Assembly (NCBI GenBank): GCA_041666745.1
Contig: JBAYGI010000002.1
Coordinates: 36,291 to 100,290 of the forward strand
Reading direction: 5' to 3'
DNA: 64,000 nt
Source of the DNA: Candidatus Magasanikiibacteriota bacterium
GTDB taxonomy: Bacteria > Patescibacteriota > Patescibacteriia > Magasanikbacterales > GWA2-37-8
The translations under genes and the position numbers were made by a program. The notes beneath the pieces are model-generated. The model made no database searches, was not told the DNA's origin, and saw only the letters and a program-made list of their open reading frames with translations. Position 1 is the stretch's first letter; every line of letters begins with the position of its first letter. Below, piece after piece: positions 236 through 50,841 of this stretch.

Positions 236-269
236 TTTACTAATAAGATAGGTTTCCACTTTTGTGGGA

Positions 270-779
270 ATGACAAATAAAACTAATATGGGATTACTTG
301 ATCGCTGGTCAAAAAAGAATCAAACCAAACGTTTAGAAAAAACTTCTGAGCCAAAAGCTGAGGCTGAATTAGTCGAAGAAAAAAAAGTGAAAAAAACTAC
401 TGCTAAAAAAGTAACCAGTACAGCCGCGATCGAAGATGGTCATGAAGGTCACGATCATTCAGCACACGCTCATACTGCTGACAAAAAAGTTAAAAAAATT
501 ATCAACAGCATTTTATTACGCGCTTTGGTCACTGAAAAATCTGCGGTCAAACAAAGCGAAAATAAATATAGTTTTGTAGTGGCCAAAAATGCCAATAAAG
601 CTGTGATTAAAAAAGCGATCGAAGAAGTTTACAAAATTAAACCACTAAGTGTTAATATTATAAATGTTCAAGGCAAAGCAATGCGCTTTGGCAAACATTC
701 AGGTAAGAGAAGTGATTTCAAAAAAGCGATTGTTACTTTACCAAAAGGCAAAACAATCGTAATTCATGAAGGCGTTTAA
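270..779 (+). CDS. rplW: 50S ribosomal protein L23 with ~70-aa Lys/His-rich N-terminal extension
   Basis: C-terminal ~100 aa (...LLRALVTEKSAVK...YSFVVAKNANKAVIKKAIEEVYKIKPLSVNI...KKAIVTL) is a canonical L23 core; no in-frame ATG/GTG/TTG close to core so extension appears translated; ATG at 270 (GTG at 264 also possible). Confidence 0.85.
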   Translation: MTNKTNMGLLDRWSKKNQTKRLEKTSEPKAEAELVEEKKVKKTTAKKVTSTAAIEDGHEGHDHSAHAHTADKKVKKIINSILLRALVTEKSAVKQSENKYSFVVAKNANKAVIKKAIEEVYKIKPLSVNIINVQGKAMRFGKHSGKRSDFKKAIVTLPKGKTIVIHEGV

Positions 780-803
780 TTACCGAAAATATTTTAAATT
801 ATT

Positions 804-1646
804 ATGCCGATTAAAGTTTACAAACCAACAACCCCAGGCCGCAGAAAATCCAGTGTGGATGCTTTTTCTGATATTACAAAATTTGAACCGGAGAAATCTT
901 TGGTGACAGTTTTGAAAAGACATTCCGGTCGCAATAACCAAGGTAAATTGTGTGTTCGCCATCAAGGTGGTGGTGTGAAACGTTTTTATCGCTTGGTGGA
1001 TTTCAAACAAAAGAAGTTTGATGCTCCAGCTACTGTGATCGCTATCGAATATGATCCAAACCGTGGTCCACGTGTGGCTCTGATTGAATATTTGGACAAA
1101 ACTCGCGCTTATATTTTATGCCCACAAGGTTTGAATGTTGGCGATGTCGTGATGTCATCTGACAAAGCTATTGAAGCCAAAGTGGCCAATCGCATGAAAT
1201 TGGAACATATTCCAATCGGTTTGTTTGTTTATAGTATTGAAATGACCCCAGGTAAAGGTGGTCAACTCGTGCGCGGTGCCGGTTTGTCCGCTCAGTTTAC
1301 CGGTATTGAAGGTGAATATGCTCAACTACGATTACCTTCCGGTGAAACTCGCATGGTTCCAAAAGCTTGTTTTGCTTCTATCGGTATGGTTGGTAATGCT
1401 GATTATCGTTTGATTCGTTGGGGCAAGGCCGGTCGCATGAGATTGCGCGGTATTCGTCCTCGCGTTAAAGGTAAGAACATGAATCCGGTAGATCACCCGC
1501 ATGGTGGTGGTGAGGGACACTCTCCAATTGGTCAAAAACGCGGTCCACGTACTATCTATGGAAAAGCCGCTCGCGGTGTGAAGACTCGTAAACCACAGAA
1601 ATGGAGCAATAAATTTATTATCAGTTCACGTAGAAAAAAAATCTAA
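804..1646 (+). CDS. rplB: 50S ribosomal protein L2
   Basis: MPIKVYKPTTPGRRK... and HPHGGGEG motif; 280 aa. Confidence 0.95.
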   Translation: MPIKVYKPTTPGRRKSSVDAFSDITKFEPEKSLVTVLKRHSGRNNQGKLCVRHQGGGVKRFYRLVDFKQKKFDAPATVIAIEYDPNRGPRVALIEYLDKTRAYILCPQGLNVGDVVMSSDKAIEAKVANRMKLEHIPIGLFVYSIEMTPGKGGQLVRGAGLSAQFTGIEGEYAQLRLPSGETRMVPKACFASIGMVGNADYRLIRWGKAGRMRLRGIRPRVKGKNMNPVDHPHGGGEGHSPIGQKRGPRTIYGKAARGVKTRKPQKWSNKFIISSRRKKI

Positions 1647-1656
1647 TTAAAAAATT

Positions 1657-1998
1657 ATGACAAGAAGTTTAAAAAAAGGTCTTTACGTTGATCCACGCAT
1701 CATGAAGAAAGTGGTCAAAGTAAAAGACAGTGGTAAAAAAACCCCTATCAAAACATGGTCTCGCGCTTGTGTGATTTCTCCGGAAATGGTTGGCGTGACT
1801 TTCTTGGTACATAATGGAAAAGATTTTATTAGTGTTTTTGTAGATGAAAATATGGTTGGACACCGTTTGGGTGAATTTTCTCCAACCAAGAAGTTTGTTC
1901 GTCATGGTGGTAAGATGGCCAAAGAACAAGAAACAGCCGCTACTGCAGCCGCCGCTCCTAAATCCGCCGATGCTAAGCCGGCCGCCCCTAAAAAATAA
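1657..1998 (+). CDS. rpsS: 30S ribosomal protein S19 with Ala/Lys-rich C-terminal tail
   Basis: [19 protein letters not shown]...[18 protein letters not shown] canonical S19; tail [26 protein letters not shown]. Confidence 0.95.
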
Positions 1999-2029
1999 TC
2001 AAAGATAAAAAGATTTTTAAATTTTTTAT

Positions 2030-2401
2030 ATGAATCAGGCAGTAACTGCAAAATTAAACTTTTTGAGAATGAGTCCACGCAAAGCGCGATTGGTGGTTGA
2101 TTTGATTCGCGGTCGCAGAGTAGCCAAGGCTTTGGAAATTTTGACATTGTCCAACAAATTGGCCGCTAGACCGATTATGAAACTTTTGAATTCCGCTATC
2201 GCCAATGCCAAACACAATTTTAAGCTAGGACCGGAAAATTTGGTTATATCTACTATTATGGTTGATGGAGGTCCAATGTTGAAACGCTGGATGCCAAAAG
2301 CTCATGGCCGCGCTACACCAATTCGTGAACGCACTTCACATATTAGTTTAATTCTTACCGAGGTTGCCAAACCAGTTAAGAAAGTGAAAAAAACATCATA
2401 A
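2030..2401 (+). CDS. rplV: 50S ribosomal protein L22
   Basis: ...RMSPRKARLVVDLIRGRRVAKALEILT... L22 signature; operon position. Confidence 0.9.
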   Translation: MNQAVTAKLNFLRMSPRKARLVVDLIRGRRVAKALEILTLSNKLAARPIMKLLNSAIANAKHNFKLGPENLVISTIMVDGGPMLKRWMPKAHGRATPIRERTSHISLILTEVAKPVKKVKKTS

Positions 2402-2416
2402 TATAATTTGAATACT

Positions 2417-3103
2417 ATGGGACACAAAGTTCATCCGAAAATTCATCGCACCCCATTCATTTTTGCTTGGGATTCAAAATGGTTTGCTAAAAAAGAGCAG
2501 TATCCTAATTTTATCGAACAAGAAATTAAGATTCGAGATTTTTTGGCAAAAAAATTAAAGGAGGCCAGTATCGATGCAGTTAGTATCGAGCGTACTCCTA
2601 AAGAATTAGTAGTTACCATTTTGGCCGCTAAGCCAGGTGTGATTATCGGAAGAAATGGTCAAGGTTTGGAAATGGTTCGCAAAGAAATTGAAAAGAAAAT
2701 TTTACAGTTTAAAACCAAAGTAAAACTAAATATTCAGGCGGTGAATCAACCGGCTTTGTCCGCTCAGATTGTTGGACAGAGTATGGCTTCTGAAATTGAA
2801 CGTCGTATTCCTTTTCGTCGTGTTATGAAACAAGCGATGGAAAAAGTTATGACTGCTGGTGCTCAAGGTGTGAAATTCGCTGTAGCTGGACGTCTCAACG
2901 GTGTAGAAATTGCTCGTCGTGAAGTGATGGGTGCCGGAAAAATGTCCTTGATTACTTTGCGCAGTGATGTAGATTACGCCATTGTTGAAGCCAACACTAT
3001 TTACGGAAAGATCGGTGTTAAGGTCTGGATTTACAAAGGCGAAGCTTTTGGACGTCGAGATAAATTTGCAAAAAAAGAAGTTGAAAAAGAAAAAACTAAA
3101 TAA
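2417..3103 (+). CDS. rpsC: 30S ribosomal protein S3
   Basis: MGHKVHPKIHR... KH and S3-C domains; ATG at 2417 preferred over TTG at 2408. Confidence 0.95.
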   Translation: MGHKVHPKIHRTPFIFAWDSKWFAKKEQYPNFIEQEIKIRDFLAKKLKEASIDAVSIERTPKELVVTILAAKPGVIIGRNGQGLEMVRKEIEKKILQFKTKVKLNIQAVNQPALSAQIVGQSMASEIERRIPFRRVMKQAMEKVMTAGAQGVKFAVAGRLNGVEIARREVMGAGKMSLITLRSDVDYAIVEANTIYGKIGVKVWIYKGEAFGRRDKFAKKEVEKEKTK

Positions 3104-3118
3104 GATTTTTGAAACTGT

Positions 3119-3532
3119 ATGTTGATACCAAAAAAAGTTAAACATAGAAAATGGCAAAAAGGACGCGGTCGTTTTCGTGGTGTTGCTACTCGCAACAATG
3201 CGATTGCTTTTGGCCAGTTTGGTTTAAAAAGCACAACTGCCGGTTGGATTAACAGTCGTCAGATTGAATCCGCTCGTCGTGTATTGACTCGTTATGTTCG
3301 ACGTGGTGGTAAGATTTGGATTCGCGTTTTCCCAGATCGTCCAATTACCAAAAAAGGCAACGAAGTACCAATGGGCGGCGGAAAAGGTTCTCCGGATCAT
3401 TATGTCGCTGTTATTAAGCCGGGTACGATTATGTTTGAAATGGGTGGTATCACTCGTGAGTCTGCCAAGATTGCTATGGATTTGGCCGGTTACAAATTAG
3501 GGGTACGTACTAAATTTATTGAAAAGGCTTAA
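3119..3532 (+). CDS. rplP: 50S ribosomal protein L16
   Basis: [27 protein letters not shown]... canonical L16. Confidence 0.95.
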
Positions 3533-3545
3533 TCTTAAAGATTAT

Positions 3546-3812
3546 ATGGAAAAACAAGTAATTAAAAAAATAAGTCGAGAGTTTAAAGGTATAGTAACCA
3601 GCGCGGCAATGACTAAAACCATTACTGTGAAGGTTGATAGTATCAAAAAACATACAAAATATCCAAAAAGTTTTACTGTTAGTCGCAAGTATCATGTTCA
3701 TGATGAACAGCAAGTGGCTAAAGTAGGGGATAAAGTTCGTTTTGTAGAATGTCGTCCGCTATCGGCCACCAAACGTTGGAGACTGGTAGAAGTTTTAAAA
3801 GTTAATGGTTAA
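3546..3812 (+). CDS. rpsQ: 30S ribosomal protein S17
   Basis: ...GIVTSAAMTKTITVKVD...SRKYHVHDE...VGDKVRFVECRPLSATKRWRLVEVL; ATG at 3546, 14 nt after rplP stop; no room for rpmC between. Confidence 0.9.
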   Translation: MEKQVIKKISREFKGIVTSAAMTKTITVKVDSIKKHTKYPKSFTVSRKYHVHDEQQVAKVGDKVRFVECRPLSATKRWRLVEVLKVNG

Positions 3813-3824
3813 TCAGATTTTTAT

Positions 3825-4196
3825 ATGATGCAACATCGCTCAATGTTAAAAGTAGCAGATAATACCGGTGCCAAGAAATTGCAATGCATTCGTGTTTTGG
3901 GCGGTTATAAAAAACGCTACGGTCAGATTGGTGATATTATTACCTGCGTAGTAAAAGAAGCTACACCACACGGTATGGTAAAAAAGAGTGAAGTGGTTCA
4001 TGTAGTAGTGGTTCGTCAATGCAAAGAGATTCGCCGTTCGGATGGTACCTATATTCGTTTTGATGAAAATGCCGGTGTGATTGTGGATCGAAAAACTAAA
4101 GAACCAAAAGGCACTCGTATTTTTGGACCGATTGCTCGCGAGTTACGTACCAAAGGTTTTCAAAAAATTATTTCTTTGGCGCCGGAAGTGCTCTAA
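3825..4196 (+). CDS. rplN: 50S ribosomal protein L14
   Basis: [18 protein letters not shown]... canonical L14. Confidence 0.95.
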
Positions 4197-4208
4197 ATTA
4201 TATATAAG

Positions 4209-4261
4209 TTTCTGCGAAACTTGAAATTACATCGAGTTTCGCAAAAAGAAATAAATTTCTT
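4209..4261 (+). promoter_or_regulatory. Structured intergenic leader between rplN and rplX: 13-bp hairpin (TTTCTGCGAAACT ... AGTTTCGCAAAAAGA) followed by a small AT hairpin AAGAAAT-AA-ATTTCTT and T-run
   Basis: Inverted repeats read directly from sequence; this 86-nt gap is the only large intergenic gap in an otherwise tightly packed ribosomal operon. Confidence 0.3.
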
Positions 4262-4282
4262 TTTAACTCAACTCTAGTAATT

Positions 4283-4591
4283 ATGAAAATTAAATCAAAC
4301 GACAAAGTAAAAATTATTAAGGGCAAAGATCGCAACAAAGAAGGCAAGATTATTCAGGTTTTTCCAGTTGCCGGTAAAGTTGTAGTAGAAGGATTGAACT
4401 TAATGAAAAAACATTTACGCACTCGTAAAGCTGGAGAAAAAGGACAGGTAATTGAGTTGTCCGCTCCGGTACGCGTAGAAAATGTTTCATTAATTTGTCC
4501 AAAATGCAATCGCACTACTCGCGTTGGTTTTAAATTAGATGGCAAAGATAAAAAACGCGTTTGCCGCAAATGTAAAGAGTTTATTGATTAA
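4283..4591 (+). CDS. rplX: 50S ribosomal protein L24 (KOW) with C-terminal CxxC...CxxC zinc-ribbon variant
   Basis: MKIKSNDKVKIIKGKDRNKEGKI... KOW; C-terminus ICPKCNRTTRVGFKLDGKDKKRVCRKCKEF aligns to the usual ...PTRVGY..DGKKVRV... tail but with four Cys. Confidence 0.9.
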   Translation: MKIKSNDKVKIIKGKDRNKEGKIIQVFPVAGKVVVEGLNLMKKHLRTRKAGEKGQVIELSAPVRVENVSLICPKCNRTTRVGFKLDGKDKKRVCRKCKEFID

Positions 4592-4595
4592 TTTT

Positions 4596-5138
4596 ATGAC
4601 ACCTAATTTATACCAAAAATACAAAACAGAAGTAGTGCCGGCTTTGAAAGCTGAACTCAAATTGAAAAACACCATGCAGGTGCCAAAAATTACCAAAGTG
4701 GTGATCAATGTTGGTGTTGGTCGTTTTGTAAAAGAAGCAAGTTATATTGAAAATGTAGAAAAAACTTTGTCCAAAATTACCGGTCAGAAACCGATTCGCA
4801 CCAAAGCTAAAAAAGCTATTTCCAATTTTAAAATTAGACAAGGACAAGAAATCGGTGTGGTAGTAACTTTGCACGGAAAACGCATGTATCAATTTTTAGA
4901 AAAATTGGTCAATGTAAGTTTTCCTCGTATTCGCGATTTCCGCGGTATTACCGACAAAGCTTTTGATCGCCAAGGAAATTACACTCTGGGCTTGAAAGAA
5001 AATACTGCTTTTCCAGAAGTAAAAACCGGTGAAATTGAAAAAATGCATGGTTTGCAAATTATTATCAACACTACCGCCAAAGATCGTGTTGCCGGAAAAG
5101 CATTGTTAACTCATCTAGGATTTCCTTTTATAAAATAA
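4596..5138 (+). CDS. rplE: 50S ribosomal protein L5
   Basis: MTPNLYQKYKTEVVPALKAELKLKNTMQVPKITKVVINVGVG...; ATG at 4596 directly after rplX stop. Confidence 0.9.
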   Translation: MTPNLYQKYKTEVVPALKAELKLKNTMQVPKITKVVINVGVGRFVKEASYIENVEKTLSKITGQKPIRTKAKKAISNFKIRQGQEIGVVVTLHGKRMYQFLEKLVNVSFPRIRDFRGITDKAFDRQGNYTLGLKENTAFPEVKTGEIEKMHGLQIIINTTAKDRVAGKALLTHLGFPFIK

Positions 5139-5141
5139 TAT

Positions 5142-5327
5142 ATGGCAACAGAAGCACAAATTTCCAAATCAAATAAAAAACCAAAATTTTCTACTCGCAT
5201 TGTCCGACGTTGTTGGAAGTGCGGACGCAAACGCGCCTTTATTCGTCATTTTGGTTTGTGTCGTATTTGCTTTCGTGAATTGGCTAACGCCGGTAAATTA
5301 CCGGGTGTACGAAAGTCAAGCTGGTAA
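5142..5327 (+). CDS. rpsN: 30S ribosomal protein S14 type Z (zinc-binding, 61 aa)
   Basis: ...[24 protein letters not shown]... C-x2-C...C-x2-C short-form S14. Confidence 0.9.
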
Positions 5328-5367
5328 TTAATTTTTATTTTATAACATTAAATAATCAACTGTATTT

Positions 5368-5757
5368 ATGATGACTGATCCAATCGCTGACATGCTCACC
5401 CGCATTCGTAATGCATACAAGGTGCGCAAACAAGAAGCGACATTTCCATATTCCAAACTAAAGATGAAAATCTGCGAAATTTTGGTACGTGAAGGATATT
5501 TGGAAAAAGTCCAAACTAACGAAGATAAATTTCCACAGATTGTGGTTACTTTGAAATATTCCGGACGTCAAGGTGCTTTGGAAAGTATCAAAAGAATCAG
5601 TAAGCCGGGTTCACGTTGTTATGTACAGGCTGATCAACTCACCAAAGTACTCAATGGTTTTGGTGTATCGATTGTGTCCACTTCCAAAGGTATTATGACT
5701 GGTAAAGAGGCCCGTGGAGCCAAACTAGGCGGCGAATTAATTTGTGAAGTATATTAA
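5368..5757 (+). CDS. rpsH: 30S ribosomal protein S8
   Basis: MMTDPIADMLTRIRNA... canonical S8. Confidence 0.95.
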   Translation: MMTDPIADMLTRIRNAYKVRKQEATFPYSKLKMKICEILVREGYLEKVQTNEDKFPQIVVTLKYSGRQGALESIKRISKPGSRCYVQADQLTKVLNGFGVSIVSTSKGIMTGKEARGAKLGGELICEVY

Positions 5758-5783
5758 TCAGACAGAATTATTAATAAAAACAT

Positions 5784-6332
5784 ATGTCTCGTATCGGTAA
5801 AAAAATTAGAAAAATTCCACAAGGCGTAACCGTGGAAGTGAAAAATGAAGAATTGGTAGTAAAAGGACCAAAAGGTGAATTGCGCCTAAAATTACACCCA
5901 CGTATCACAGCGTCTATTGCTGATGGTCAAGTTTCTGTTAGTGTAGTTAGTCCGGAAAATACCAAAGACAAAGCGTTGTGGGGTACATTTTCCAGTATTA
6001 TTGAAAATATGTTGGATGGTGTGACTACCGGTTTTAAAAAACAACTGGAAATTAACGGTGTCGGTTATAAAGCTTCCTTGAAAGGTGCGAATTTGGTTTT
6101 GGAAGTTGGTTTTTCTCATCCGGTAGAATTAATACCGGCTGGTGGTATTAAATTTGAAGTAGAAAAAAATGTGATTACAGTTAGCGGAATTGATAAGCAG
6201 ATGGTTGGAGAAATGGCCGCTCAAATTCGCAGTACTAAAAAAGTAGAACCTTATAAAGGCAAAGGTATCAAGTATCTTGGTGAAATAGTACGTCGCAAGG
6301 CTGGTAAGACTGCCGCTAAAGGGGCTGCATAA
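5784..6332 (+). CDS. rplF: 50S ribosomal protein L6
   Basis: MSRIGKKIRKIPQGVTVEVK... two L6 repeats. Confidence 0.95.
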   Translation: MSRIGKKIRKIPQGVTVEVKNEELVVKGPKGELRLKLHPRITASIADGQVSVSVVSPENTKDKALWGTFSSIIENMLDGVTTGFKKQLEINGVGYKASLKGANLVLEVGFSHPVELIPAGGIKFEVEKNVITVSGIDKQMVGEMAAQIRSTKKVEPYKGKGIKYLGEIVRRKAGKTAAKGAA

Positions 6333-6357
6333 TTTAGTTTAAAGAATATATAAAAAT

Positions 6358-6732
6358 ATGCGTAGATTGACTCAAACAAATAAAAATGAATTACGCCAAG
6401 TGCGTCATGCTCGTGTGCGCTCTCATTTGAGTGGCACCAAGTTGAAACCACGCTTGTCTGTTTTTCGTAGTCTAAGAAGTATTACCGCTCAATTGATTAA
6501 TGATGAAGCCGGTAAAACCCTTGCTCAGGCCAGTGGAAAAGAAGTCGGCAAAGAAAAGGTAGAAGGTTATACTGGAAAGATTTTGACTGCTTTTTTGGTT
6601 GGTAAAAAAATTGCTGAAAAAGCTAAAACGGTTGGAATTACCAAGATAGTATTTGATCGTGGTGGTTACCAATATCACGGACGTGTTCAGGCTTTGGCTG
6701 ATGGTGCTCGCGCCGGTGGCTTGGAATTTTAA
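6358..6732 (+). CDS. rplR: 50S ribosomal protein L18
   Basis: ...RHARVRSHLSGTKLKPRLSVFRSLRSITAQLIND... L18. Confidence 0.9.
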   Translation: MRRLTQTNKNELRQVRHARVRSHLSGTKLKPRLSVFRSLRSITAQLINDEAGKTLAQASGKEVGKEKVEGYTGKILTAFLVGKKIAEKAKTVGITKIVFDRGGYQYHGRVQALADGARAGGLEF

Positions 6733-6761
6733 TTTGTTTTGTAATGTATTGATTTAAATTT

Positions 6762-7235
6762 ATGCAAAAAAGTTTCAAGAGACCAGGTAGACAACAAGAA
6801 AAATCCGAGTTTGATTCCAATATTTTGGATTTGGCTCGCGTAACTCGTGTTACCGAAGGTGGAAAACATATGAGTTTTCGTGCTTTGGTAGTAGTTGGTG
6901 ATCGCAAGGGTCGCGTTGGTTTTGGTGTTGAAAAAGGCAAAGATGTACAGATTGGCGTGGATAAAGCCACTCGTCAAGCCAAAAAGAATTTGATCAAAGT
7001 GCCGATTGTTAACGAAACTATTCCACACGCAGTTTACATGAAGTTTAAAGCAGCCAAAGTAATGTTGAAACCAGCTCCAAAAGGTTCTGGTATTATCGCT
7101 GGTGGCGCAGTTCGTGTTGTGTTGGATTTGGCCGGTGTTCCAAATGTTTCTTCCAAGATTATTGGTAAAACAAAAAATAAAATTACTATTATCAAGGCGA
7201 CTTTCGAAGCTTTAAAAGCCTTGCGTTCCAAATAA
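6762..7235 (+). CDS. rpsE: 30S ribosomal protein S5
   Basis: ...VTRVTEGGKHMSFRALVVVGDRKGRVGFGVEKGKDVQIGVDKATRQAKKN... S5. Confidence 0.95.
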   Translation: MQKSFKRPGRQQEKSEFDSNILDLARVTRVTEGGKHMSFRALVVVGDRKGRVGFGVEKGKDVQIGVDKATRQAKKNLIKVPIVNETIPHAVYMKFKAAKVMLKPAPKGSGIIAGGAVRVVLDLAGVPNVSSKIIGKTKNKITIIKATFEALKALRSK

Positions 7236-7257
7236 AAAAACTAAAAATAATTTTTAT

Positions 7258-7698
7258 ATGAAATTAGCCATCCATACTCTCAAGGCATCCAAAGGCTCAC
7301 GCCATACCGCCAAAAAACTTGGTCGTGGTAATGCTTCCGGTCATGGAAATTATTCCGGGCATGGTGGTAAAGGACAAACCGCTCGTTCCGGTGGTAGTCG
7401 TGGTTTGAAATTGAAAGGTTTCAAACGTTTGATGCAATCCACTCCAAAATTACGTGGTTTTACCAGTATTGCTACTAGACCATCCGAGGTTTATTTGAGT
7501 GATTTGGAAAAACACTTTGCGGTTGGTGAGATCGTAAATTTGATAACTTTGAAAGAAAAAAACATCTTGTCCGCTTCAGTAAAAACTGCTAAAATAGTAG
7601 GGACAGGAGAATTAAAGAAAAAATTGACAGTTGAAGGTATCAAAACAACTGCCAGCGCCAAAGTCGCTATCGAAAAAGCCGGAGGAGAAGTTAAATAA
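7258..7698 (+). CDS. rplO: 50S ribosomal protein L15 (follows S5 directly; no L30 gene between)
   Basis: ...GRGNASGHGNYSGHGGKGQTARSGG... L15 glycine-rich motif. Confidence 0.9.
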   Translation: MKLAIHTLKASKGSRHTAKKLGRGNASGHGNYSGHGGKGQTARSGGSRGLKLKGFKRLMQSTPKLRGFTSIATRPSEVYLSDLEKHFAVGEIVNLITLKEKNILSASVKTAKIVGTGELKKKLTVEGIKTTASAKVAIEKAGGEVK

Positions 7699-7709
7699 CC
7701 CTTCACTTT

Positions 7710-8984
7710 ATGTGGGAAAAAATTGAACAAGTTTGGAAAATTAAAGATATTAGAAAAAATATCTTATTTGTCTTGGCCATGTTGGTAGTATTTCGTTTGG
7801 CTTCACATGTGCCGGTTCCGGGAGTAAATGTCGCCAATTTAAAAAATTATTTGGAAGGCAATCAGATCATGGGGTTGTTGAATGTGTTTTCCGGTGGTAC
7901 CATGTCAAATTTTTCAGTGATCATGTTGGGTGTGGCTCCGTATATTACGGCTTCTATTATTTTTCAGTTGTTGGCGATGATTGTGCCGGCTTTGGAAGAA
8001 ATGACTAAAGAAGGTGAATCCGGCCAACAGCGCATCAACATGTATACTAGATATCTGACAGTACCTCTAGCATTTTTGCAATCTTTTGCTATGATCCGTT
8101 TGTTGCAAAATTCCTCTCGTCCGATTTTATCGGATTTGACTCCTTTTAGAATGATTACCATTATGGCCACCATTACTGCCGGAACAATGTTTTTGGTGTG
8201 GCTCGGTGAATTGATTTCAGAAAAGAAAGTTGGCAACGGGATGTCCTTGTTGATTTTTGCCGGTATCGTTTCTTCTTTGCCAACAATTTTACGCAATGCT
8301 TTTATCAACTATACTTCGGCTGATTTTTATACTTTTGTTCTGATGGCCGGTGTAGCGGTTTTGACTGTAGTTGGTGTGGTATTTATCAATGAGGGACAGA
8401 GAAATATTCCGGTCAATTATGCCAAACAAATGCGTGGCAATCATGTTTACGGCGGTTCTTCTTCACACTTGCCAATTCGTGTAAATATGTCCGGTGTAAT
8501 TCCGATTATCTTCGCGATTTCTTTGGTGTTATTTCCACCGATGGTTGCTCAGTTTTTCGTACATGCCCGTAGTGCTTGGTTGTCTGTAATGGCAGTGAAG
8601 ACTATCGCCTTGTTTCAAAATCAATTATTTTATGGTTGTGCTTATTTCTTGTTAGTATTTTTCTTCACTTATTTCTATACAGCCGTTATTTTCCATCCTC
8701 AAAAAATTGCGGAGAATTTGCAACGTCAGGGTGGGTTCGTGCCAGGTATTCGTCCAGGTAAAGAAACTGAAAAATATTTGGGCATGACTGTAAATCGTAT
8801 CAATTTAATCGGCGCTACTTTCCTAGGTTTGATTGCAGTGTTACCATTGTTGGTCCAAGGGGCTTCGGGTACGACCTCGTTTCAGATTGGTGGTACTAGT
8901 TTGTTGATCGTAGTGGCAGTGGCTATCGAAGCGGCCAAACAGATTGAATCTCAGGTGACAATGCATGAGTACGACCGTATTTAA
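7710..8984 (+). CDS. secY: Preprotein translocase subunit SecY
   Basis: 424 aa, 10 TM pattern, ...MLGVAPYITASIIFQLL... SecY signature. Confidence 0.95.
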   Translation: MWEKIEQVWKIKDIRKNILFVLAMLVVFRLASHVPVPGVNVANLKNYLEGNQIMGLLNVFSGGTMSNFSVIMLGVAPYITASIIFQLLAMIVPALEEMTKEGESGQQRINMYTRYLTVPLAFLQSFAMIRLLQNSSRPILSDLTPFRMITIMATITAGTMFLVWLGELISEKKVGNGMSLLIFAGIVSSLPTILRNAFINYTSADFYTFVLMAGVAVLTVVGVVFINEGQRNIPVNYAKQMRGNHVYGGSSSHLPIRVNMSGVIPIIFAISLVLFPPMVAQFFVHARSAWLSVMAVKTIALFQNQLFYGCAYFLLVFFFTYFYTAVIFHPQKIAENLQRQGGFVPGIRPGKETEKYLGMTVNRINLIGATFLGLIAVLPLLVQGASGTTSFQIGGTSLLIVVAVAIEAAKQIESQVTMHEYDRI

Positions 8985-11294: not shown

Positions 11295-11304
11295 AGTAAA
11301 AAAA

Positions 11305-11337
11305 CCAGCCAAAGGGTTGACTTTTGGCTGGTTTTTG
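11305..11337 (+). terminator. Rho-independent terminator of recG (CCAGCCAAAG-loop-CTTTTGGCTGG + TTTTTG)
   Basis: Inverted repeat plus T-run immediately after recG stop. Confidence 0.6.
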
Positions 11338-11426
11338 TTTATAATGTCGACGTTTGGTGTTTGTCTGCAAAGTGTGGCGGAAGTTCCGTCGCTTGGTGTG
11401 GCTGCGCTAGACCAGAGGAGTAGAGA

Positions 11427-11723
11427 ATGGAAATCTGCTGTATCAAGTTGCCGCGTTTCGCGGTATCTACGGTGTCGAACGGCGAACCAGACCAGCTCAT
11501 ACATGTGAATGTGCGAGCAGGCCGGTATACCAAACAGGTCATCGTTCGAAGGGATGACGCGATTTCCCTGTTGAAGGGATATGCGGGCAACCGCACCATC
11601 GATTTCTACGACGCGCTCGATTCGGAAGTCCCGGCCGGACAGATTCTGGCCAAGGATATTCTCGCCGTCAATTTGCCACGGACATCAAGGAAACGGGACG
11701 GACTTTACCTTTGTGGCCGTTAG
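11427..11723 (+). CDS. Hypothetical 98-aa ORF inside GC-rich island (possibly non-coding)
   Basis: ATG ORF, GC3 ~65% unlike host genes; no recognisable domain. Confidence 0.2.
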   Translation: MEICCIKLPRFAVSTVSNGEPDQLIHVNVRAGRYTKQVIVRRDDAISLLKGYAGNRTIDFYDALDSEVPAGQILAKDILAVNLPRTSRKRDGLYLCGR

Positions 11724-11743
11724 GCGGCGGCTTCTCTGCTCGT

Positions 11744-11771
11744 AGGCCGCGGATCTCTCGATCCGCGGCCT
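11744..11771. terminator. Perfect 12-bp palindrome with 4-nt loop (AGGCCGCGGATC tctc GATCCGCGGCCT), likely bidirectional terminator between convergent transcription units
   Basis: Seen directly; located 10 nt from stop of minus-strand gene 11782..12387. Confidence 0.5.
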
Positions 11772-11781
11772 CAGCATTTAT

Positions 11782-12387
11782 TTAGGCGCTAAAGACGTAA
11801 GTTTTTTTCTCCGGATTTAATTTGTAAACTGTCCACGGTCCACTACCATATATTTTATCCAGTTCTTGTAACAAAGAACTTTTTTCATTACTGTGCACTA
11901 CCAACGTACGAGTGGTTTCATCGGCGTGGGCGACACTGTATGTTAAATCGATGGCTATATAATAACCTTTGTTGTGATTGGCCGGATCGGGTATTTCCAA
12001 CAGTCCAATACTGTGAAATTTAAAATGAGCAAAAGCGCCTTTGGTTGGATTTTCATTTTCCAAATCAGAATATTTGGCTTGAGGGTATCTTTCAAAAAAT
12101 TTTTTATCATCATCGTCGGTTTGGTTGACGAGCATTTTGCCAAAATCTTGGGTAGCACTACGACAATTGGCGGCATATTCTTTTTCGGTACCACGGTCGC
12201 CTCTCAAAGCAGTTCTATTTTTTGAACGATAAAATTGAGTAATTACTTCGTCGATATCAAGCATAATATTTTCTTTTTCCGGTCCTAGATCCAGACGGAC
12301 TTTTCCTTCGCGATCCAGATGTTGGGTAACCACTCGTGGTTTGTCTTTTGCTTCGATAGCTGTTCCATGTCTACGTTCGAAAGGCAT
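11782..12387 (-). CDS. Hypothetical protein (201 aa), last gene of long minus-strand operon
   Basis: Long ORF with host-like composition, 16 nt downstream of radA; no recognised motif. Confidence 0.5.
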   Translation of the reverse strand: MPFERRHGTAIEAKDKPRVVTQHLDREGKVRLDLGPEKENIMLDIDEVITQFYRSKNRTALRGDRGTEKEYAANCRSATQDFGKMLVNQTDDDDKKFFERYPQAKYSDLENENPTKGAFAHFKFHSIGLLEIPDPANHNKGYYIAIDLTYSVAHADETTRTLVVHSNEKSSLLQELDKIYGSGPWTVYKLNPEKKTYVFSA

Positions 12388-17782: not shown

Positions 17783-19171
17783 TTAAGTTTTTTGTGGTTG
17801 ATTTTCAGTTTGTTGTTCCTGATTTTGTTGATTTTCTTTGGCTTTTTGTTCATCCAGATATTCTTTTCGAGATCTTCCGGTAGCGGCCATCAGACGGTTT
17901 ATGGTCAATATTTCTTTTCTCTTTTTTAATCGTTCTTTGGTCGGTTTCAACACTTCCTTTAATTGATCTATTATTTCAGTTACTTCTTTTTCTATTTTAT
18001 CTACTGCGGCTGTTAACCTGTCTTTTATTATGGCGAAGTTTTTGATCAATAAAATTAAGACTATAAAAGGTGATACAACAATCAACAAAAGTCCAGGAAT
18101 TACCGCCGCGGCAAAACCGGCCGCTATTATTCTTCCGGTACCGACAAGCGCCATGGATAAAGCAGTGGTAATTTTAGTTGCCTCCAAGGTTACTTTGATA
18201 GTTTGCAAAGTAATTAATTTTGTTTCCAGTATAGTAATTTTGGCTTCATCTTTCGCGTTTGATATACCCATGGTCACGCCCATGATGGCACTATAAATTG
18301 TTGGTAGAAAACGTCTCAACAACCACATTGCGCCACTAGATTTAACTCCATCCATTTTATTTTCCAATTTTCTCAAATCAGATTCTAGGTCTCTTCGTTT
18401 TTTACCAAGTTGTTTCAATCTTGATCGATCACTTTGTAAGCTATTTTTTATATTTTTGCCCAAATTTCCCGGTGCATTTTTAACAGCCTTTACAATATTT
18501 TTTGGCGCATCTTTGATCGCCTGTGCGCCACTTTTTATTTTATTAACTCTATCGGTGATACCACCTTTGACACTATCTTTCATTCTTCCACCCAAACTTT
18601 TTTTCTTTGCTTTGTCGGAAGCCATATTGGAAGCGGCGGATTCCTCACTGCCAGGAGGTACTTTTTCAGGGGCTTTATCGGTAGTTGGGTGTGGGCCGGT
18701 TTCTTCGAGAGCTTTGTCCGGGATAGTTTTTGGGGGAGTGGTGTCACGTTTTGTATCGGTTGGTTCAGGAGGAATTGGTTGCTCGTCCGCGGTATCTTCA
18801 GTAGGAGTGGGTGGGGTTTCTTTTTCGGTACCTGGCGGAGGTGTTTGTGGAGATGGGGTAGGAGGTGGAGGAGGAAGGGGTTGAACGGGTTGTTGTTGTG
18901 GCGGTGTTGCATCAGGCTGTGGTGAAGTTTCTTCTGGAACAGGCGGAATAGTGGGCGGAAATTTTGGAGTCGGCGGAATTTCTTCCGGAGGTGTGATTTC
19001 AGTTTTCGGAGTTTTTATTACCGGGGTTTCTAAACCTAATTGAATTTTTTCATCTTTGATTTTTGCACTGTTAACGCCGGATATACCTGTTATTTCAATA
19101 TTATTATCGGCAACTAGACCATTTCTTTCTAATTCTTGTCTAATAAGTTTTTGTTCGTCTGGCGTAGCCAT
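17783..19171 (-). CDS. Proline-rich low-complexity membrane protein (hypothetical)
   Basis: PT/PP-rich segment aa ~50-180, Lys-rich middle, C-terminal hydrophobic TM cluster; GC-rich antisense ORFs here are by-products of proline codons. Confidence 0.5.
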   Translation of the reverse strand: MATPDEQKLIRQELERNGLVADNNIEITGISGVNSAKIKDEKIQLGLETPVIKTPKTEITPPEEIPPTPKFPPTIPPVPEETSPQPDATPPQQQPVQPLPPPPPTPSPQTPPPGTEKETPPTPTEDTADEQPIPPEPTDTKRDTTPPKTIPDKALEETGPHPTTDKAPEKVPPGSEESAASNMASDKAKKKSLGGRMKDSVKGGITDRVNKIKSGAQAIKDAPKNIVKAVKNAPGNLGKNIKNSLQSDRSRLKQLGKKRRDLESDLRKLENKMDGVKSSGAMWLLRRFLPTIYSAIMGVTMGISNAKDEAKITILETKLITLQTIKVTLEATKITTALSMALVGTGRIIAAGFAAAVIPGLLLIVVSPFIVLILLIKNFAIIKDRLTAAVDKIEKEVTEIIDQLKEVLKPTKERLKKRKEILTINRLMAATGRSRKEYLDEQKAKENQQNQEQQTENQPQKT

Positions 19172-21769: not shown

Positions 21770-23185
21770 ATGTTTCCAAAACAGGTATTTAAAGTCTATG
21801 ATATCCGCGGTCTAACAGAGGGTGAGTTGAGCGAAGATTTGGCCTATCGGATTGGCAGAGCGTATGGAGTGTTTTTGCGAGAAAGTAGCACTGTCATTCC
21901 GATCCGCCAGTCGGCGGGCGAGGAATCCCTCAAAGTGGTGGTCGGGCAAGACATGCGCGCCACCAGTCCGAAATATGCAAAAGAAGTAATTCGCGGGCTA
22001 AATGATGAAGGTCTAAATGTGGTAGATATCGGTTTGGCCAGCACGCCACTGTTTAATTTTGCTTGTACTTTTTATCCTGAACATTTGGCTGGTATCATGG
22101 TGACTGCCAGCCACAACCCGGCGCAATACAATGGTTTCAAAATGACCCTGCACGATGGTACGCCAGTCGGAGGAAAAACCGGTATGGATACGATTCGCGA
22201 TTTAGCAGAAAAAAATGAGTGGACATCGGCGAACGCAGAAAATGTCATTCCCGCGAAAGCGGGAATCCAGGCATCAATCACCCAAAAAGATGTCTTCCCA
22301 GATTACCTAAACAAAATTTTATCCATTGTAAAACCGGAAGAAATAAAACCATTAAAAATAGTAATTGACGCCGGCAACGGTATGGCCGCCGTCACATTCG
22401 TGGAATTATTAAAAAAGTTACCGGTGCAGGTTGAATATTTGTTTTTAAAACCGGATGGAAATTTTCCGAATCACGAGGCCAATCCGTTGAAAACTGAAAC
22501 ATTAAAAACATTGCAGGAAAAAGTAAAAGCCACCGGCGCGGATTTTGGTTTTGCCTTGGATGGAGACGCGGATCGTATGGGTTTAGTAGATGAAAATGGG
22601 GAAGTGGTGGAAGCGTCTTTTGTTGGGGCTTTGGCTGGTTTAGAAATTTTACGAGAACACCCTGGTGTACACATGCTTTATGATTTGCGCTCCAGTAAAA
22701 TTCAGAAAGAAGTTTGGGAAGCCAATGGCGCTACGACCGGTATGTGTCCGGTGGGGCATGCGAATATAAAAAAGATGATGAAAGATCAAAAGGCAGAGTT
22801 CGCCAGCGAGCTGTCTTTGCATCTGTATTTTCACTCCATGTGTGATGTGGAATCCACCGATTTGGCCCTGTTATATTTCTTGCGATTGTTATCTCGTAGT
22901 GGCAAAAAATTGAGCGAGCTGATCGCGCCGTTGAAAAAATATTTTCATTCCGGTGAGATAAATTTCAAAGTGGCCGACAAAGAAAAAGTGTTGAACAATT
23001 TACGTGTTCAATATGGCGATGCAAAAATAACCGAGTTGGATGGATTATCTTTTGAATATCCGACTTGGTGGTTTAATGTACGCGCGAGTAATACTGAGCC
23101 GGTTTTGCGGCTGAATTTGGAGGCGGATACCAAGGGTGAAATGGAAGAAAAATTGGTGAATGTGAAAAATATAATCAATGGATAG
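21770..23185 (+). CDS. Phosphoglucomutase/phosphomannomutase family (alpha-D-phosphohexomutase)
   Basis: Active-site TASHNPAQYNGFK, Mg-binding DGDADR, 471 aa; carries two in-frame GC-rich palindromic insertions. Confidence 0.85.
   Translation: MFPKQVFKVYDIRGLTEGELSEDLAYRIGRAYGVFLRESSTVIPIRQSAGEESLKVVVGQDMRATSPKYAKEVIRGLNDEGLNVVDIGLASTPLFNFACTFYPEHLAGIMVTASHNPAQYNGFKMTLHDGTPVGGKTGMDTIRDLAEKNEWTSANAENVIPAKAGIQASITQKDVFPDYLNKILSIVKPEEIKPLKIVIDAGNGMAAVTFVELLKKLPVQVEYLFLKPDGNFPNHEANPLKTETLKTLQEKVKATGADFGFALDGDADRMGLVDENGEVVEASFVGALAGLEILREHPGVHMLYDLRSSKIQKEVWEANGATTGMCPVGHANIKKMMKDQKAEFASELSLHLYFHSMCDVESTDLALLYFLRLLSRSGKKLSELIAPLKKYFHSGEINFKVADKEKVLNNLRVQYGDAKITELDGLSFEYPTWWFNVRASNTEPVLRLNLEADTKGEMEEKLVNVKNIING
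21893..21930. repeat. GC-rich palindromic element inserted in-frame in pgm (GTCATTCCGATCCGCCAGTCGGCGGGCGAGGAATCCC)
   Basis: Nested inverted repeats ATTCC...GGAAT and CCGCC-AGTC-GGCGG; encodes extra peptide SSTVIPIRQSAGEESLK just before conserved VVVGQDMR. Confidence 0.5.
22244..22270. repeat. GC-rich palindromic element GTCATTCCCGCGAAAGCGGGAATCCAG inserted in-frame in pgm (encodes VIPAKAGIQ; antisense WIPAFAGMT)
   Basis: Perfect 8-bp stem ATTCCCGC/GCGGGAAT with GAAA loop; reverse complement almost identical (27/28) to intergenic copy at 30481-30509. Confidence 0.6.
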
Positions 23186-30480: not shown

Positions 30481-30509
30481 CTGGATTCCCGCGTTCGCGG
30501 GAATGACAG
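30481..30509. repeat. Intergenic copy (reverse orientation) of palindromic element CTGGATTCCCGCGTTCGCGGGAATGACAG in divergent lemA/rseP promoter region
   Basis: Reverse complement matches 22244-22270 at 27/28 positions; GC-rich tail continues to ~30540. Confidence 0.55.
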
Positions 30510-46618: not shown

Positions 46619-49111
46619 ATGAAAAAGTATAACCATCAGGAAGTTGAAAAAAAATGGAAGAAAAAGTGGGAGGATAGTGAAATTTACAAAACAGCGGATA
46701 CTTCGGATAAACCAAAATATTATGTTTTGGATATGTTTCCGTATCCGTCTGGCGCCGGTTTGCATGTTGGTCATCCCAAAGGATATATTGCTACAGATAT
46801 TATTGCGCGTCAAAAAATGATGCAAGGTTACAATGTACTTCACCCGATGGGTTGGGACGCGTTTGGTTTGCCGGCAGAAAATTATGCCATCGCGAACAAA
46901 GTGCATCCGAGTGTGGCCACGGCCAAAAACATCAAAACTTTCAAAAAGCAATTGGGTTTGCTTGGTTTTACCTATGATTGGAATCGCGAAGTGAATACTA
47001 CCGACCCGGCATATTACAAATGGACACAATGGGCATTTGTTCAAATGTTTAAAAAAGGTTTGGCTTATGAATCTTTTGAGCCGATCAACTGGTGTCCGAG
47101 TTGTCAGACCGGTTTGGCCAACGAAGATTTGAACGATGGAAAATGTGAGCGCTGTGGTAGTGAGATTGAACACAAGCCGATGCGCCAATGGGTTTTGAAA
47201 ATTACTGATTATGCGGAGAGGTTATTGAAAGATTTAGAAAAATTACCACAATGGCCGGAACATATTAAAAAAATGCAGAGTGATTGGATTGGAAAGAGTG
47301 AAGGGGCGGAAGTGGATTTTACGATTGTCATCCCGAGCGAAGCCGAGGGATCCCTCCACTCGTTGCGACACTCAGTCGGGATGACAACTCTCAAAGTATT
47401 CACCACTCGTCCGGATACTTTGTTTGGTGCGACCTATATGGTAATAGCGCCGGAACATAAAATTTTAGAACAATTAAAAGAAAAAATTTCCAATTGGACA
47501 GAAGTGCAAAAATATATTACCGATGCGAATAAAAAATCCGATTTGGAACGCACGGATTTGGCCAAAGAAAAAACCGGCGTGCGAATCAAAGGTGTGGAAG
47601 CGATAAATCCAGTCACGGAAGAATCGTTACCAATTTTTGTAGCTGATTATGTTTTGGCCGGTTATGGTACCGGAGCGATCATGTCTGTACCAGCGCACGA
47701 TGAACGAGATTGGGAATTTGCTAAAAAATATAAACTACCGATAGTAGATGTAGTATTGCCAATGGATAAAAACGGCGCTGTTCTTTTTGATGCCAACAAT
47801 TTAAGTGAAAGTGCTTTTTGTGAAAATGGTGTGGCGGTGAATTCGGACTTTTTAAATAATTTACCTACCGAAGAAGCCAAAGAAAAAATGATTGGATGGT
47901 TGGAAGAAAAAGGAATAGGCAAAAGGAAAGTACAATACAAATTACGCGATTGGGTTTTTTCTCGTCAGCGTTATTGGGGTGAGCCGATTCCTTTGGTAAA
48001 ATGTGAAAAATGTGGTTGGATCCCAGTTCCGGAAAATGAATTACCGCTTGAACTTCCAAAAGTAAAAAATTACGCACCTAGTGGTACCGGGGAATCACCG
48101 CTCGCCACTATCGACAAATGGGTAAATACCAAATGTCCGCAGTGTGGTGGCAAAGCCCAACATGAAACCAACACCATGCCACAGTGGGCGGGGAGTTGTT
48201 GGTATTATTTACGCTATGAAGATCCACACAATGAAAAAGAATTGGTAAACAAAAACAAAGAAAAATATTGGAGTCCGGTAGATTTGTATGTTGGTGGAGC
48301 CGAGCATGCCACGCGTCATTTGATCTACGCGCGTTTTTGGCATAAATTTTTATTTGATATCGGTGTGGTGCAAAACGACGAACCGTTTACTCGTTTGCAA
48401 AATGTCGGTTTAATTTTGGCCGAAGATGGACGCAAAATGAGTAAGCGCTGGAACAATGTGATCAACCCCGACGATGTGGTAAAAGAATACGGTGCCGACG
48501 CCATGCGTTTGTATGAAATGTTTATGGGACCATTTGATCAGCCATGTGCTTGGAATACTCAAGGGTTGGTAGGTATGAAAAGATTTTTGGAAAGAGTTTG
48601 GGGGTTGTTGGGGAAAAATACCGGATCCCCGATCGGGTCGGGGATGACAAGTGGTGCTATAACTCTATTACATCAGACAATAGAAAAAGTTTCAAAAGAT
48701 ATTGAAACACTTTCTTTCAACACCGCCATCGCCAAGATGATGGAGTTGGTGAATGAGTTTAATAAACATGAGCAAATCACCACAAAAGATTTGAAAACTT
48801 TTTTACAATTACTCGCTCCCTTTGCCCCTCATATTAGTGAAGAATTATGGGGCGTGTTGGGAGAAAAAGAAAGCATATTCAAGTCAGTTTGGCCAAAACA
48901 TGATCCGGAACTGGCAAAAGATGTTGAAATTACTCTGGCTGTGCAGATAAATGGTAAATTACGCGACACCATCACCGTGTCTGCTGATATTTCCGAAGAA
49001 CAAGCCAAACAAACTGCTTTATCTAGTGAAAAAGTAAAAAAATGGCTGGAAAACAAACCCCCTCAAAAGGTGATTTATGTTAAAGGGAAACTGATCAGTA
49101 TAGTAGTGTAA
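46619..49111 (+). CDS. leuS: Leucine--tRNA ligase
   Basis: HVGHPKGY (HIGH), KMSKS, CP1 editing domain; 830 aa; carries two in-frame GC-rich palindromic insertions. Confidence 0.95.
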   Translation: MKKYNHQEVEKKWKKKWEDSEIYKTADTSDKPKYYVLDMFPYPSGAGLHVGHPKGYIATDIIARQKMMQGYNVLHPMGWDAFGLPAENYAIANKVHPSVATAKNIKTFKKQLGLLGFTYDWNREVNTTDPAYYKWTQWAFVQMFKKGLAYESFEPINWCPSCQTGLANEDLNDGKCERCGSEIEHKPMRQWVLKITDYAERLLKDLEKLPQWPEHIKKMQSDWIGKSEGAEVDFTIVIPSEAEGSLHSLRHSVGMTTLKVFTTRPDTLFGATYMVIAPEHKILEQLKEKISNWTEVQKYITDANKKSDLERTDLAKEKTGVRIKGVEAINPVTEESLPIFVADYVLAGYGTGAIMSVPAHDERDWEFAKKYKLPIVDVVLPMDKNGAVLFDANNLSESAFCENGVAVNSDFLNNLPTEEAKEKMIGWLEEKGIGKRKVQYKLRDWVFSRQRYWGEPIPLVKCEKCGWIPVPENELPLELPKVKNYAPSGTGESPLATIDKWVNTKCPQCGGKAQHETNTMPQWAGSCWYYLRYEDPHNEKELVNKNKEKYWSPVDLYVGGAEHATRHLIYARFWHKFLFDIGVVQNDEPFTRLQNVGLILAEDGRKMSKRWNNVINPDDVVKEYGADAMRLYEMFMGPFDQPCAWNTQGLVGMKRFLERVWGLLGKNTGSPIGSGMTSGAITLLHQTIEKVSKDIETLSFNTAIAKMMELVNEFNKHEQITTKDLKTFLQLLAPFAPHISEELWGVLGEKESIFKSVWPKHDPELAKDVEITLAVQINGKLRDTITVSADISEEQAKQTALSSEKVKKWLENKPPQKVIYVKGKLISIVV
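47326..47386. repeat. GC-rich palindromic element inserted in-frame in leuS (TGTCATCCCGAGCGAAGCCGAGGGATCCCTCCACTCGTTGCGACACTCAGTCGGGATGACA)
   Basis: 10-bp terminal inverted repeat GTCATCCCGA/TCGGGATGAC plus inner palindrome GAGGGATCCCTC; encodes extra ~14-20 aa (IVIPSEAEGSLHSLRHSVGMTT) in a loop that is 8 aa in E. coli LeuS. Confidence 0.55.
48623..48649. repeat. Second GC-rich palindromic element in leuS (GGATCCCCGATCGGGTCGGGGATGACA; encodes PIGSGMTSG)
   Basis: 8-bp stem ATCCCCGA/TCGGGGAT; shares GGGATGACA terminus and GGATCC with the other family members. Confidence 0.45.
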
Positions 49112-50840: not shown

Positions 50841-50841
50841 T

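Follow-up and report, generated by a model that had tools for sequence, protein, structure and literature searches.

The GC-rich island downstream of recG in this DNA is best explained, with a probability that we put at about 70%, as a self-contained single-gene unit that encodes a lineage-specific small basic protein and has a conserved mRNA architecture and a transcript predicted to pair with itself. The island occupies positions 11340-11780 of the 64,000-nt stretch analysed here (the window). To our knowledge, almost nothing is known about gene regulation in the CPR/Patescibacteria, a group of uncultured bacteria with very small genomes. The locus offers a compact and testable case that combines a predicted promoter of consensus type inside a terminator, a leader that is conserved, a predicted lock between the 5' and 3' parts of the mRNA, and a fast-evolving small protein.

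The island and its 98-aa open reading frame

We measured base composition across the window and compared the island with the rest. GC content is 0.549 at 11340-11780 and 0.394 for the window as a whole. Among 1,274 segments of 300 bp taken along the 64 kb (mean GC 0.394, sd 0.043), the four most GC-rich all fall in the island, with a maximum of 0.57. The jump to roughly 55% GC that a first-pass annotation had estimated by eye is therefore confirmed, and the observation of a GC-rich island is both real and accurate. Its position between convergent genes was also correctly described: recG (+) ends at 11294 on one side, and on the other a 201-aa ORF (11782-12387, -) converges on the island and is followed by radA (-). 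The second most GC-rich spot in the window (0.53; 18550-18950, -) lies inside a 462-aa ORF (17783-19171) and appears to be a glycine- and proline-rich low-complexity stretch, unlike the island unit.

Open frames are found on both strands of the island, with ORFs of 63, 98 and 54 aa on the plus strand and of 86 and 123 aa on the minus strand. This multi-frame openness had been noted in the annotation and taken as a sign of non-coding sequence, an interpretation that does not survive, as the 98-aa ORF (11427-11723, +) is a protein gene with homologues. Two further details given for this ORF hold up, namely a third-position GC content (GC3) of about 65% (0.626 as computed) and the absence of a recognizable motif (no Pfam match). 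At first the island looked unique, because blastn aligns its DNA with the islands of related genomes only at the ends.

We searched for homologues of the 98-aa ORF at the protein level. A word-indexed search of 5.8 billion proteins returned only the query itself, and a phmmer pass over 1.84 billion representatives gave matches of 90-100 aa to P0008, P0009 and P0011 (E = 9e-6, 1.5e-5 and 3e-4). Two more members came from syntenic contigs, giving a family (family A) composed of the window ORF, P0008, P0009, P0011, P0012 and P0013. The three top non-self phmmer matches (P0006, P0007 and P0010) are internally repetitive proteins of 763-964 aa in which 4-12 stretches are matched, and we treated them as artefacts. 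The small ORF at locus L005 enters the family through the profile only; a likeness between it and the window ORF seen by eye was set aside, its BLASTP score not being significant. A search of the 5.8 billion proteins with the family A profile added nothing to the six known members. Thus, family A is tiny and lineage-restricted, being confined to a few Candidatus Magasanikbacteria genomes. Its members are 90-109 aa long and 25-40% identical, with similarity that covers most of their length, and they share the core IVRRGDV..L..G.....(V/I)..Y..LDS..P.G.I...DI..V..P and a basic tail.

The pattern of conservation is that of a coding sequence. In six-frame tblastn comparisons with the relatives' islands the frame of the ORF gave the best matches (E = 2e-16 and 5e-14, 60 bits), against antisense echoes with E values of 2e-8 or weaker and at most 39 bits. 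A conserved antisense ORF was considered and rejected, because the relative frame in which the antisense strand is open changes from one orthologue to the next. Synonymous divergence exceeds non-synonymous divergence in all 15 pairs of family A genes (pS 0.64-0.88, which is saturated; pN 0.37-0.55). The ORF is preceded by a Shine-Dalgarno sequence, GAGGAG, at 11415-11420 with a 6-nt spacer to the ATG, and an in-frame TAG stands two codons upstream of the start; the length of the ORF, its start codon and the Shine-Dalgarno sequence are conserved across the family A orthologues. Judged from these comparisons, the 98-aa ORF is a genuine protein-coding gene and not a strict ORFan. The first-pass annotation had offered 'ORFan' as one reading and a clear protein homologue as what would overturn it, and five homologues were found. 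The case illustrates that, in an AT-rich genome, a GC-rich island with open frames on both strands may turn out to be a coding gene, and that the homologues needed to prove it can escape a word-indexed protein search.

The protein encoded in the window has a pI of 9.2, a GRAVY score of -0.15 and no membrane segment; across family A the pI ranges from 9.2 to 10.1 and GRAVY from -0.15 to -0.72. Two AlphaFold2 runs on the six-sequence alignment, with pLDDT values of 41 and 47, suggest an all-beta fold at low confidence. The protein evolves about six times faster than RecG. Sequence and profile searches of Pfam, PHROGs, PADLOC and the PDB gave no match for family A, for the second small-gene family described below (family B) or for the 201-aa neighbour. 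Because the protein is basic and predicted to be beta-rich, and the leader of its mRNA is structured, our guess is that it is a nucleic-acid-binding accessory protein, possibly one that recognizes its own leader and regulates its own synthesis.

The locus in related genomes and its base composition

The relatives of its RecG mark the source of the window as a Candidatus Magasanikbacteria bacterium (CPR), and we analysed the same site in related genomes. In the closest genomes, whose RecG is 70-83% identical to that of the window over the stretches compared, a promoter and one or two small genes lie between recG and radA, and the small genes are GC-rich in most of them. The recG and radA genes are convergent wherever the contig reaches far enough. 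In every contig that extends into the flanks (L003, L004, L005, L083, L086, L087 and L088; L085 is too short) the small genes are directly downstream of recG, and the gene that converges from the opposite side is radA or else a homologue of the 201-aa ORF. Promoter and leader are homologous, too, among the family A genes. Family A and family B occur together in L083, L084, L085 and L087, with B downstream of A; B occurs alone in L003, L004 and L086, and A alone in the window, L005 and L088. The 201-aa ORF, which is conserved in some relatives with the C-terminal motif KIYGSGPWT(V/I)YKLNPEKKTYVF, is missing in L005 and L087, where radA follows directly. One of the contigs, L004 (CAZXEV010000024.1), bears the title 'uncultured Gammaproteobacteria bacterium'. 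Its RecG, however, shares 77% identity with that of the window and its locus has the Magasanikbacteria layout, so that the bin is probably mislabelled.

Family B consists of arginine-rich proteins of 69-88 aa, encoded at L083 724-990, L085 611-877, L086 764-1015, L004 7260-7526, L003 3877-4119 and L087 2700-2909. An hhalign comparison detected no homology between families A and B. The B gene has its own predicted hairpin-embedded promoter in L083, L085 and L087; a local hairpin, GGGG-AAU-CCC, is formed by its ribosome-binding region in L004 and L083. GC3 reaches 0.84 in this family and dN/dS is 0.2-0.4. Between L004 and L086 the pS of family B is 0.38, compared with 0.70 for the adjacent recG, which hints at either constraint on synonymous sites or recent exchange. 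The window sequence beyond the family A stop codon aligns with the B unit's 3' end, terminal hairpin included; the window lineage thus appears to have deleted B and kept its terminal hairpin. In a more distant member of the Magasanikbacteria (L006, RecG 51% identical), the recG-radA spacer (7463-8109) also has a very high GC content (62-72%); the small ORF in this spacer is a different one, lies on the minus strand (MKFISVTKARRLRAAG...) and has in front of it a GGAGAA motif that resembles a Shine-Dalgarno sequence. The gap between recG and radA may serve more generally as a place where GC-rich small genes reside.

The composition of the island could reflect recent horizontal transfer, or an assembly chimera with DNA of a GC-richer organism. 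Deviant GC (0.549) and GC3 (0.626) would fit such an origin, as would the lack of any relative of the ORF in the word-indexed search of 5.8 billion proteins, and the first-pass annotation had accordingly thought the island foreign. However, the same site downstream of recG is taken by orthologues in genomes between which recG has reached saturation at synonymous positions (pS 0.59-0.75), and these genomes also share homologous leaders, promoters and terminal hairpins. Relatives were absent from phage, plasmid and viral collections, and we found no tRNA, integrase or flanking direct repeats. As a transferred islet the unit would thus be atypical in composition only, since relatives carry orthologues and no signature of mobility was found. 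As to a chimeric join, a separately listed contig of a Logan assembly, SRR6484324, has identical junctions, although it possibly derives from the same data as the window. A chimera is unlikely, and very probably did not arise here, because these junctions are identical and the orthologous loci share the layout. Taken as a whole, an origin by recent import or misassembly is very improbable.

The high GC of the 98-aa gene is not a sign of recent import and calls for another explanation. Among 28 long ORFs of the window GC3 averages 0.357 (sd 0.06, maximum 0.446), well below the 0.626 of this gene. Expression-linked codon bias was rejected as the cause, since the ribosomal-protein genes of the window reach only 0.26-0.37; amino-acid content was rejected as well. 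The genes used as this highly expressed comparison set lie at 264-8984 (+), a series of co-directional small genes that ends in a 424-aa SecY-like ORF and that, judged from the translations, looks like an S10/spc-type ribosomal-protein operon. The GC3 bias is present in five of the six family A genes and in all family B genes (0.50-0.84), and both family A and recG show saturation at synonymous sites when these genomes are compared. Because the bias persists despite this saturation, a directional force must maintain the GC content, the candidates being selection on the RNA and a local bias of mutation or conversion. The locus therefore poses an evolutionary puzzle, that of a vertically inherited gene with a GC3 of about 0.6 in a genome at 0.36 despite full synonymous turnover.

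Predicted promoter, leader fold and long-range pairing

The predicted promoter of the unit lies within the terminator of its neighbour. The recG gene is followed by a hairpin at 11300-11336 (+) with perfect 14-bp arms, a 9-nt loop and a T-run behind it, the GC-rich hairpin and T-run that define an intrinsic terminator. Its loop holds the -35 box of a predicted sigma-70-type promoter (11317-11345, +; TTGACT-17 nt-TATAAT) that matches the consensus at 11 of 12 positions, a level reached by three sites on both strands of the 64 kb. The hairpin-plus-promoter layout recurs in L003, L004, L085, L086 and L087, and a predicted promoter is conserved before every A and B unit examined. The 98-aa gene is thus predicted to have its own near-consensus promoter.

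At the other end, the perfect 12-bp stem that the first-pass annotation placed at 11744-11771 is present, with a 4-nt loop. It lies between the convergent genes and is assigned to neither strand. The hairpin is conserved in L003, L086 and L087 with a compensatory change from a G-C to an A-T pair (GGCCGCGG versus GGCCACGG). It has no canonical U-run; a T-rich tract begins 6 nt past the stem, which is why a terminator scan left the element uncalled. We predict that it is a terminator-like element common to both convergent genes.

We used RNAalifold on the six orthologues to assess the 5' leader, which is about 75 nt long and conserved in sequence. The predicted stem at 11352-11412 (+) comprises three nested helices: an outer helix (11352-11357 with 11407-11412), a second helix (11365-11369 with 11397-11401) and a hairpin (11375-11380 with 11386-11391). 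The Shine-Dalgarno sequence is just outside this fold. Across the alignment 88% of cells can pair, compared with 34-46% in slid controls, 8 of the 20 pairs show changes on both sides, and the covariation score was reached by none of 500 shuffles. These results support, but do not prove, a leader fold that is conserved with compensatory changes in these six related sequences. Searching 456 kb of sequence (the window and its relatives) with a covariance model of the leader gave these six copies and no others. A scan of metagenomes with the leader pattern gave one chance match, inside an unrelated ORF; the family profile is too variable for back-translated scans.

A further element of the predicted architecture connects the two ends of the transcript. 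The ribosome-binding region CAGAGGAG (11413-11427, +), which comprises the GAGGAG, the spacer and the first base of the start codon, can form the 5' arm of a long-range helix, the 3' arm of which is a pyrimidine box, GCTTCTCTGCTC (11730-11741, +), that begins 7 nt past the stop codon and acts on paper as an anti-Shine-Dalgarno sequence. In the window the register is 10 bp, GAGTAGAGAA (11418-11427) with TTCTCTGCTC (11732-11741), and an alternative register pairs CAGAGGAGT (11413-11421) with GCTTCTCTG (11730-11738). An equivalent box, within about 20 nt after the stop codon and complementary to the Shine-Dalgarno sequence or start, is found in all six orthologues. The helices are 7-11 bp long, and complementarity is kept while the sequences differ: outside an AGAG/CTCT core, the same paired position is A-T, G-C, C-G or G-U in different orthologues. 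The core itself is invariant in the six sequences and hence uninformative on covariation.

The strength of the predicted duplex sets these genes apart. Its energy is -19.3 kcal/mol in the window and between -13.3 and -20.7 kcal/mol in the six units, compared with a mean of -5.8 and a best value of -10.1 kcal/mol for 37 other genes of the window, and only 0-3% of background windows pair as well as the A units. In partition-function calculations on full-length transcripts, the probability of pairing between the Shine-Dalgarno sequence and the box is about 0.9-1.0 in five of the six and 0.53 in the sixth; for the window transcript the ensemble gives 0.94-0.99, but the MFE structure computed for a fragment of slightly greater length gives part of the ribosome-binding region other partners. 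The outer leader helix and the long-range helix abut at 11412/11413. Family B transcripts, analysed identically as an internal control, showed no such pairing. Thus, conserved complementarity between the Shine-Dalgarno/start region and the downstream box is shown by computation, and the pairing itself is a prediction.

If this pairing forms, the full-length mRNA would close on itself over about 300 nt, masking the ribosome-binding site and leaving the transcript compact and stable. Translation would then need the 5'-3' helix to be opened, whether by trimming of the 3' end, by a factor acting in trans or by a terminating ribosome. The box would lie under a ribosome that terminates at the stop codon, so the site could stay open for as long as translation continues. 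The same logic of fold-back inhibition is documented for type I toxin mRNAs such as aapA1 (PMC5416894; PMC6733600).

The structure of the transcript bears on two suggestions of the first-pass annotation. It had proposed an unrecognized structured RNA, after failing to match the island to tmRNA, RNase P RNA, SRP RNA or tRNA, a failure borne out by searches with Rfam and ARAGORN. No Rfam model, those of 6S RNA, riboswitches and large GC-rich ncRNAs included, reached its gathering threshold in the whole 64 kb, the island at E values up to 10 gave only chance matches to the recG terminator hairpin, and ARAGORN found neither a tRNA nor a tmRNA. Predicted structure is indeed conserved in the leader and in the 5'-3' pairing, but conservation in a single reading frame and the negative Rfam result do not fit a stand-alone RNA gene. 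It had also described a nest of palindromes. The short palindromes exist, but inside the ORF they do not exceed what its base composition would produce. Folded by itself, the coding sequence of the window scores z = -0.76, no better than composition-matched shuffles; over family A the values run from +0.5 to -2.5, which control genes also show, and exceptional RNA structure within the coding sequence was rejected. On its sense strand the whole unit does fold better than shuffled sequences, with z-scores of -3.6 and -3.0 for the window and between -3.4 and -8.8 for its relatives, in every case a stronger signal than on the antisense strand; this is due to the untranslated regions and hairpins and not to the coding sequence. 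Instead of a nest, the significant inverted repeats are the recG terminator, the terminal hairpin and the long-range pair.

Some of the island palindromes had, in addition, been likened to a GTCATYCCCG...CGGGRATGAC element family. That family does occur elsewhere in the window, but the island has no copy and shares only GTCAT/ATGAC with it; a search of the window with a looser form of the pattern for this GTCATTCCCGCG...CGCGGGAATGAC-type repeat, which has a GTCATYCC core and the reverse complement of that core on either side of a short loop, gave no match, island included. The copies seen by eye, of the form GTCATTCCCGCG-AAAG-CGGGAATCC and variants, are at 22244-22268, 30483-30508 and 48623-48648 and are unrelated to the island. 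Two of them fall within long ORFs (21770-23185 and 46619-49111), and the third is intergenic.

Alternative readings and comparison with known systems

The island could instead specify a structured RNA about 420 nt long, either non-coding or with a dual function, in which the open frame is incidental or comes second to what the RNA does. In favour of this are the better-than-shuffled folding of the entire unit on its sense strand, a strong predicted promoter, an end formed by a hairpin, and a GC content that stays high although synonymous sites are saturated. However, the orthologues resemble one another at the protein level, in one frame, and their coding DNA cannot be aligned; pS exceeds pN; ORF length, start codon and Shine-Dalgarno sequence are conserved; the coding part alone is not unusually structured; and no Rfam family matches. 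We consider an RNA as the primary product highly doubtful. A different possibility is a module like type I toxin-antitoxin systems, with a toxic 98-aa protein whose mRNA is kept inert by its fold-back and by a yet-unseen antisense RNA. In type I toxin mRNAs such as aapA1 the Shine-Dalgarno sequence is sequestered by a long-distance 5'-3' interaction (PMC5416894; PMC6733600). Such sequestration is predicted in all six family A units, and a toxin gene would also be consistent with the strong stand-alone predicted promoter, with a protein that is small and evolves fast, and with a distribution of A and B that is patchy across close relatives. Against this, a scan with the promoter consensus detected no conserved antisense promoter, two of the six units each having one weak site (9/12) at different positions, and neither PADLOC nor Pfam gave a toxin match. 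Type I toxins are usually hydrophobic and shorter than 60 aa, whereas the 98-aa product is hydrophilic and basic and has no membrane segment. Membership of family A in the type I class is thus not supported, because there is no conserved antisense promoter and the protein is about 100 aa long and hydrophilic; we regard a toxin-antitoxin module as a whole as unlikely. The single-gene unit with a self-pairing mRNA remains our preferred reading.

This unit shares features with several known systems. Like hok of plasmid R1 and aapA1/IsoA1 of Helicobacter pylori, it would produce a stand-alone small-gene transcript from a strong promoter, predicted to be compact, stable and poorly translated. It differs from them in that the 3' partner comes immediately behind the stop codon, with more 3' structure beyond it in most orthologues, in that the product is a hydrophilic basic protein of about 100 aa and not a short hydrophobic peptide, and in that the consensus promoter scan detected no antisense RNA gene at the family A units. 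Some small RNA-binding proteins are regulated autogenously through structured leaders, as in ribosomal-protein leaders and the cspA 5' UTR. Family A resembles these in being a small basic protein gene with a conserved leader that ends beside the Shine-Dalgarno sequence, but it has no homology to the ribosomal, cold-shock, Hfq or S1 families, and that its protein binds its own leader is pure conjecture. With the lineage-specific hypothetical small proteins of the CPR/Patescibacteria it has in common the absence of a Pfam domain, a narrow range and rapid evolution; it stands out among them through a GC3 almost double the genome mean, a predicted consensus promoter placed inside the upstream terminator, and untranslated regions in which RNA structure is conserved.

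A broader and more speculative proposal is that the A unit of the window and the A and B units of its relatives represent an undescribed CPR-specific class of self-contained small-gene cassettes, in which selection at synonymous sites keeps the transcripts GC-rich and the family A mRNA is locked by the anti-Shine-Dalgarno box next to the stop codon. We hold this to be possible, though rather improbable. If true, the cassette would be an equivalent of type I toxin mRNAs that involves neither a membrane protein nor an antisense RNA, or else a switch whereby the terminating ribosome unmasks the start site for the following one.

Far from the island, a giant gene, a single ORF of at least 4,389 codons (50833-63999, +), runs off the end of the window; because it spans this region, almost no other ORFs are listed beyond 50.8 kb.
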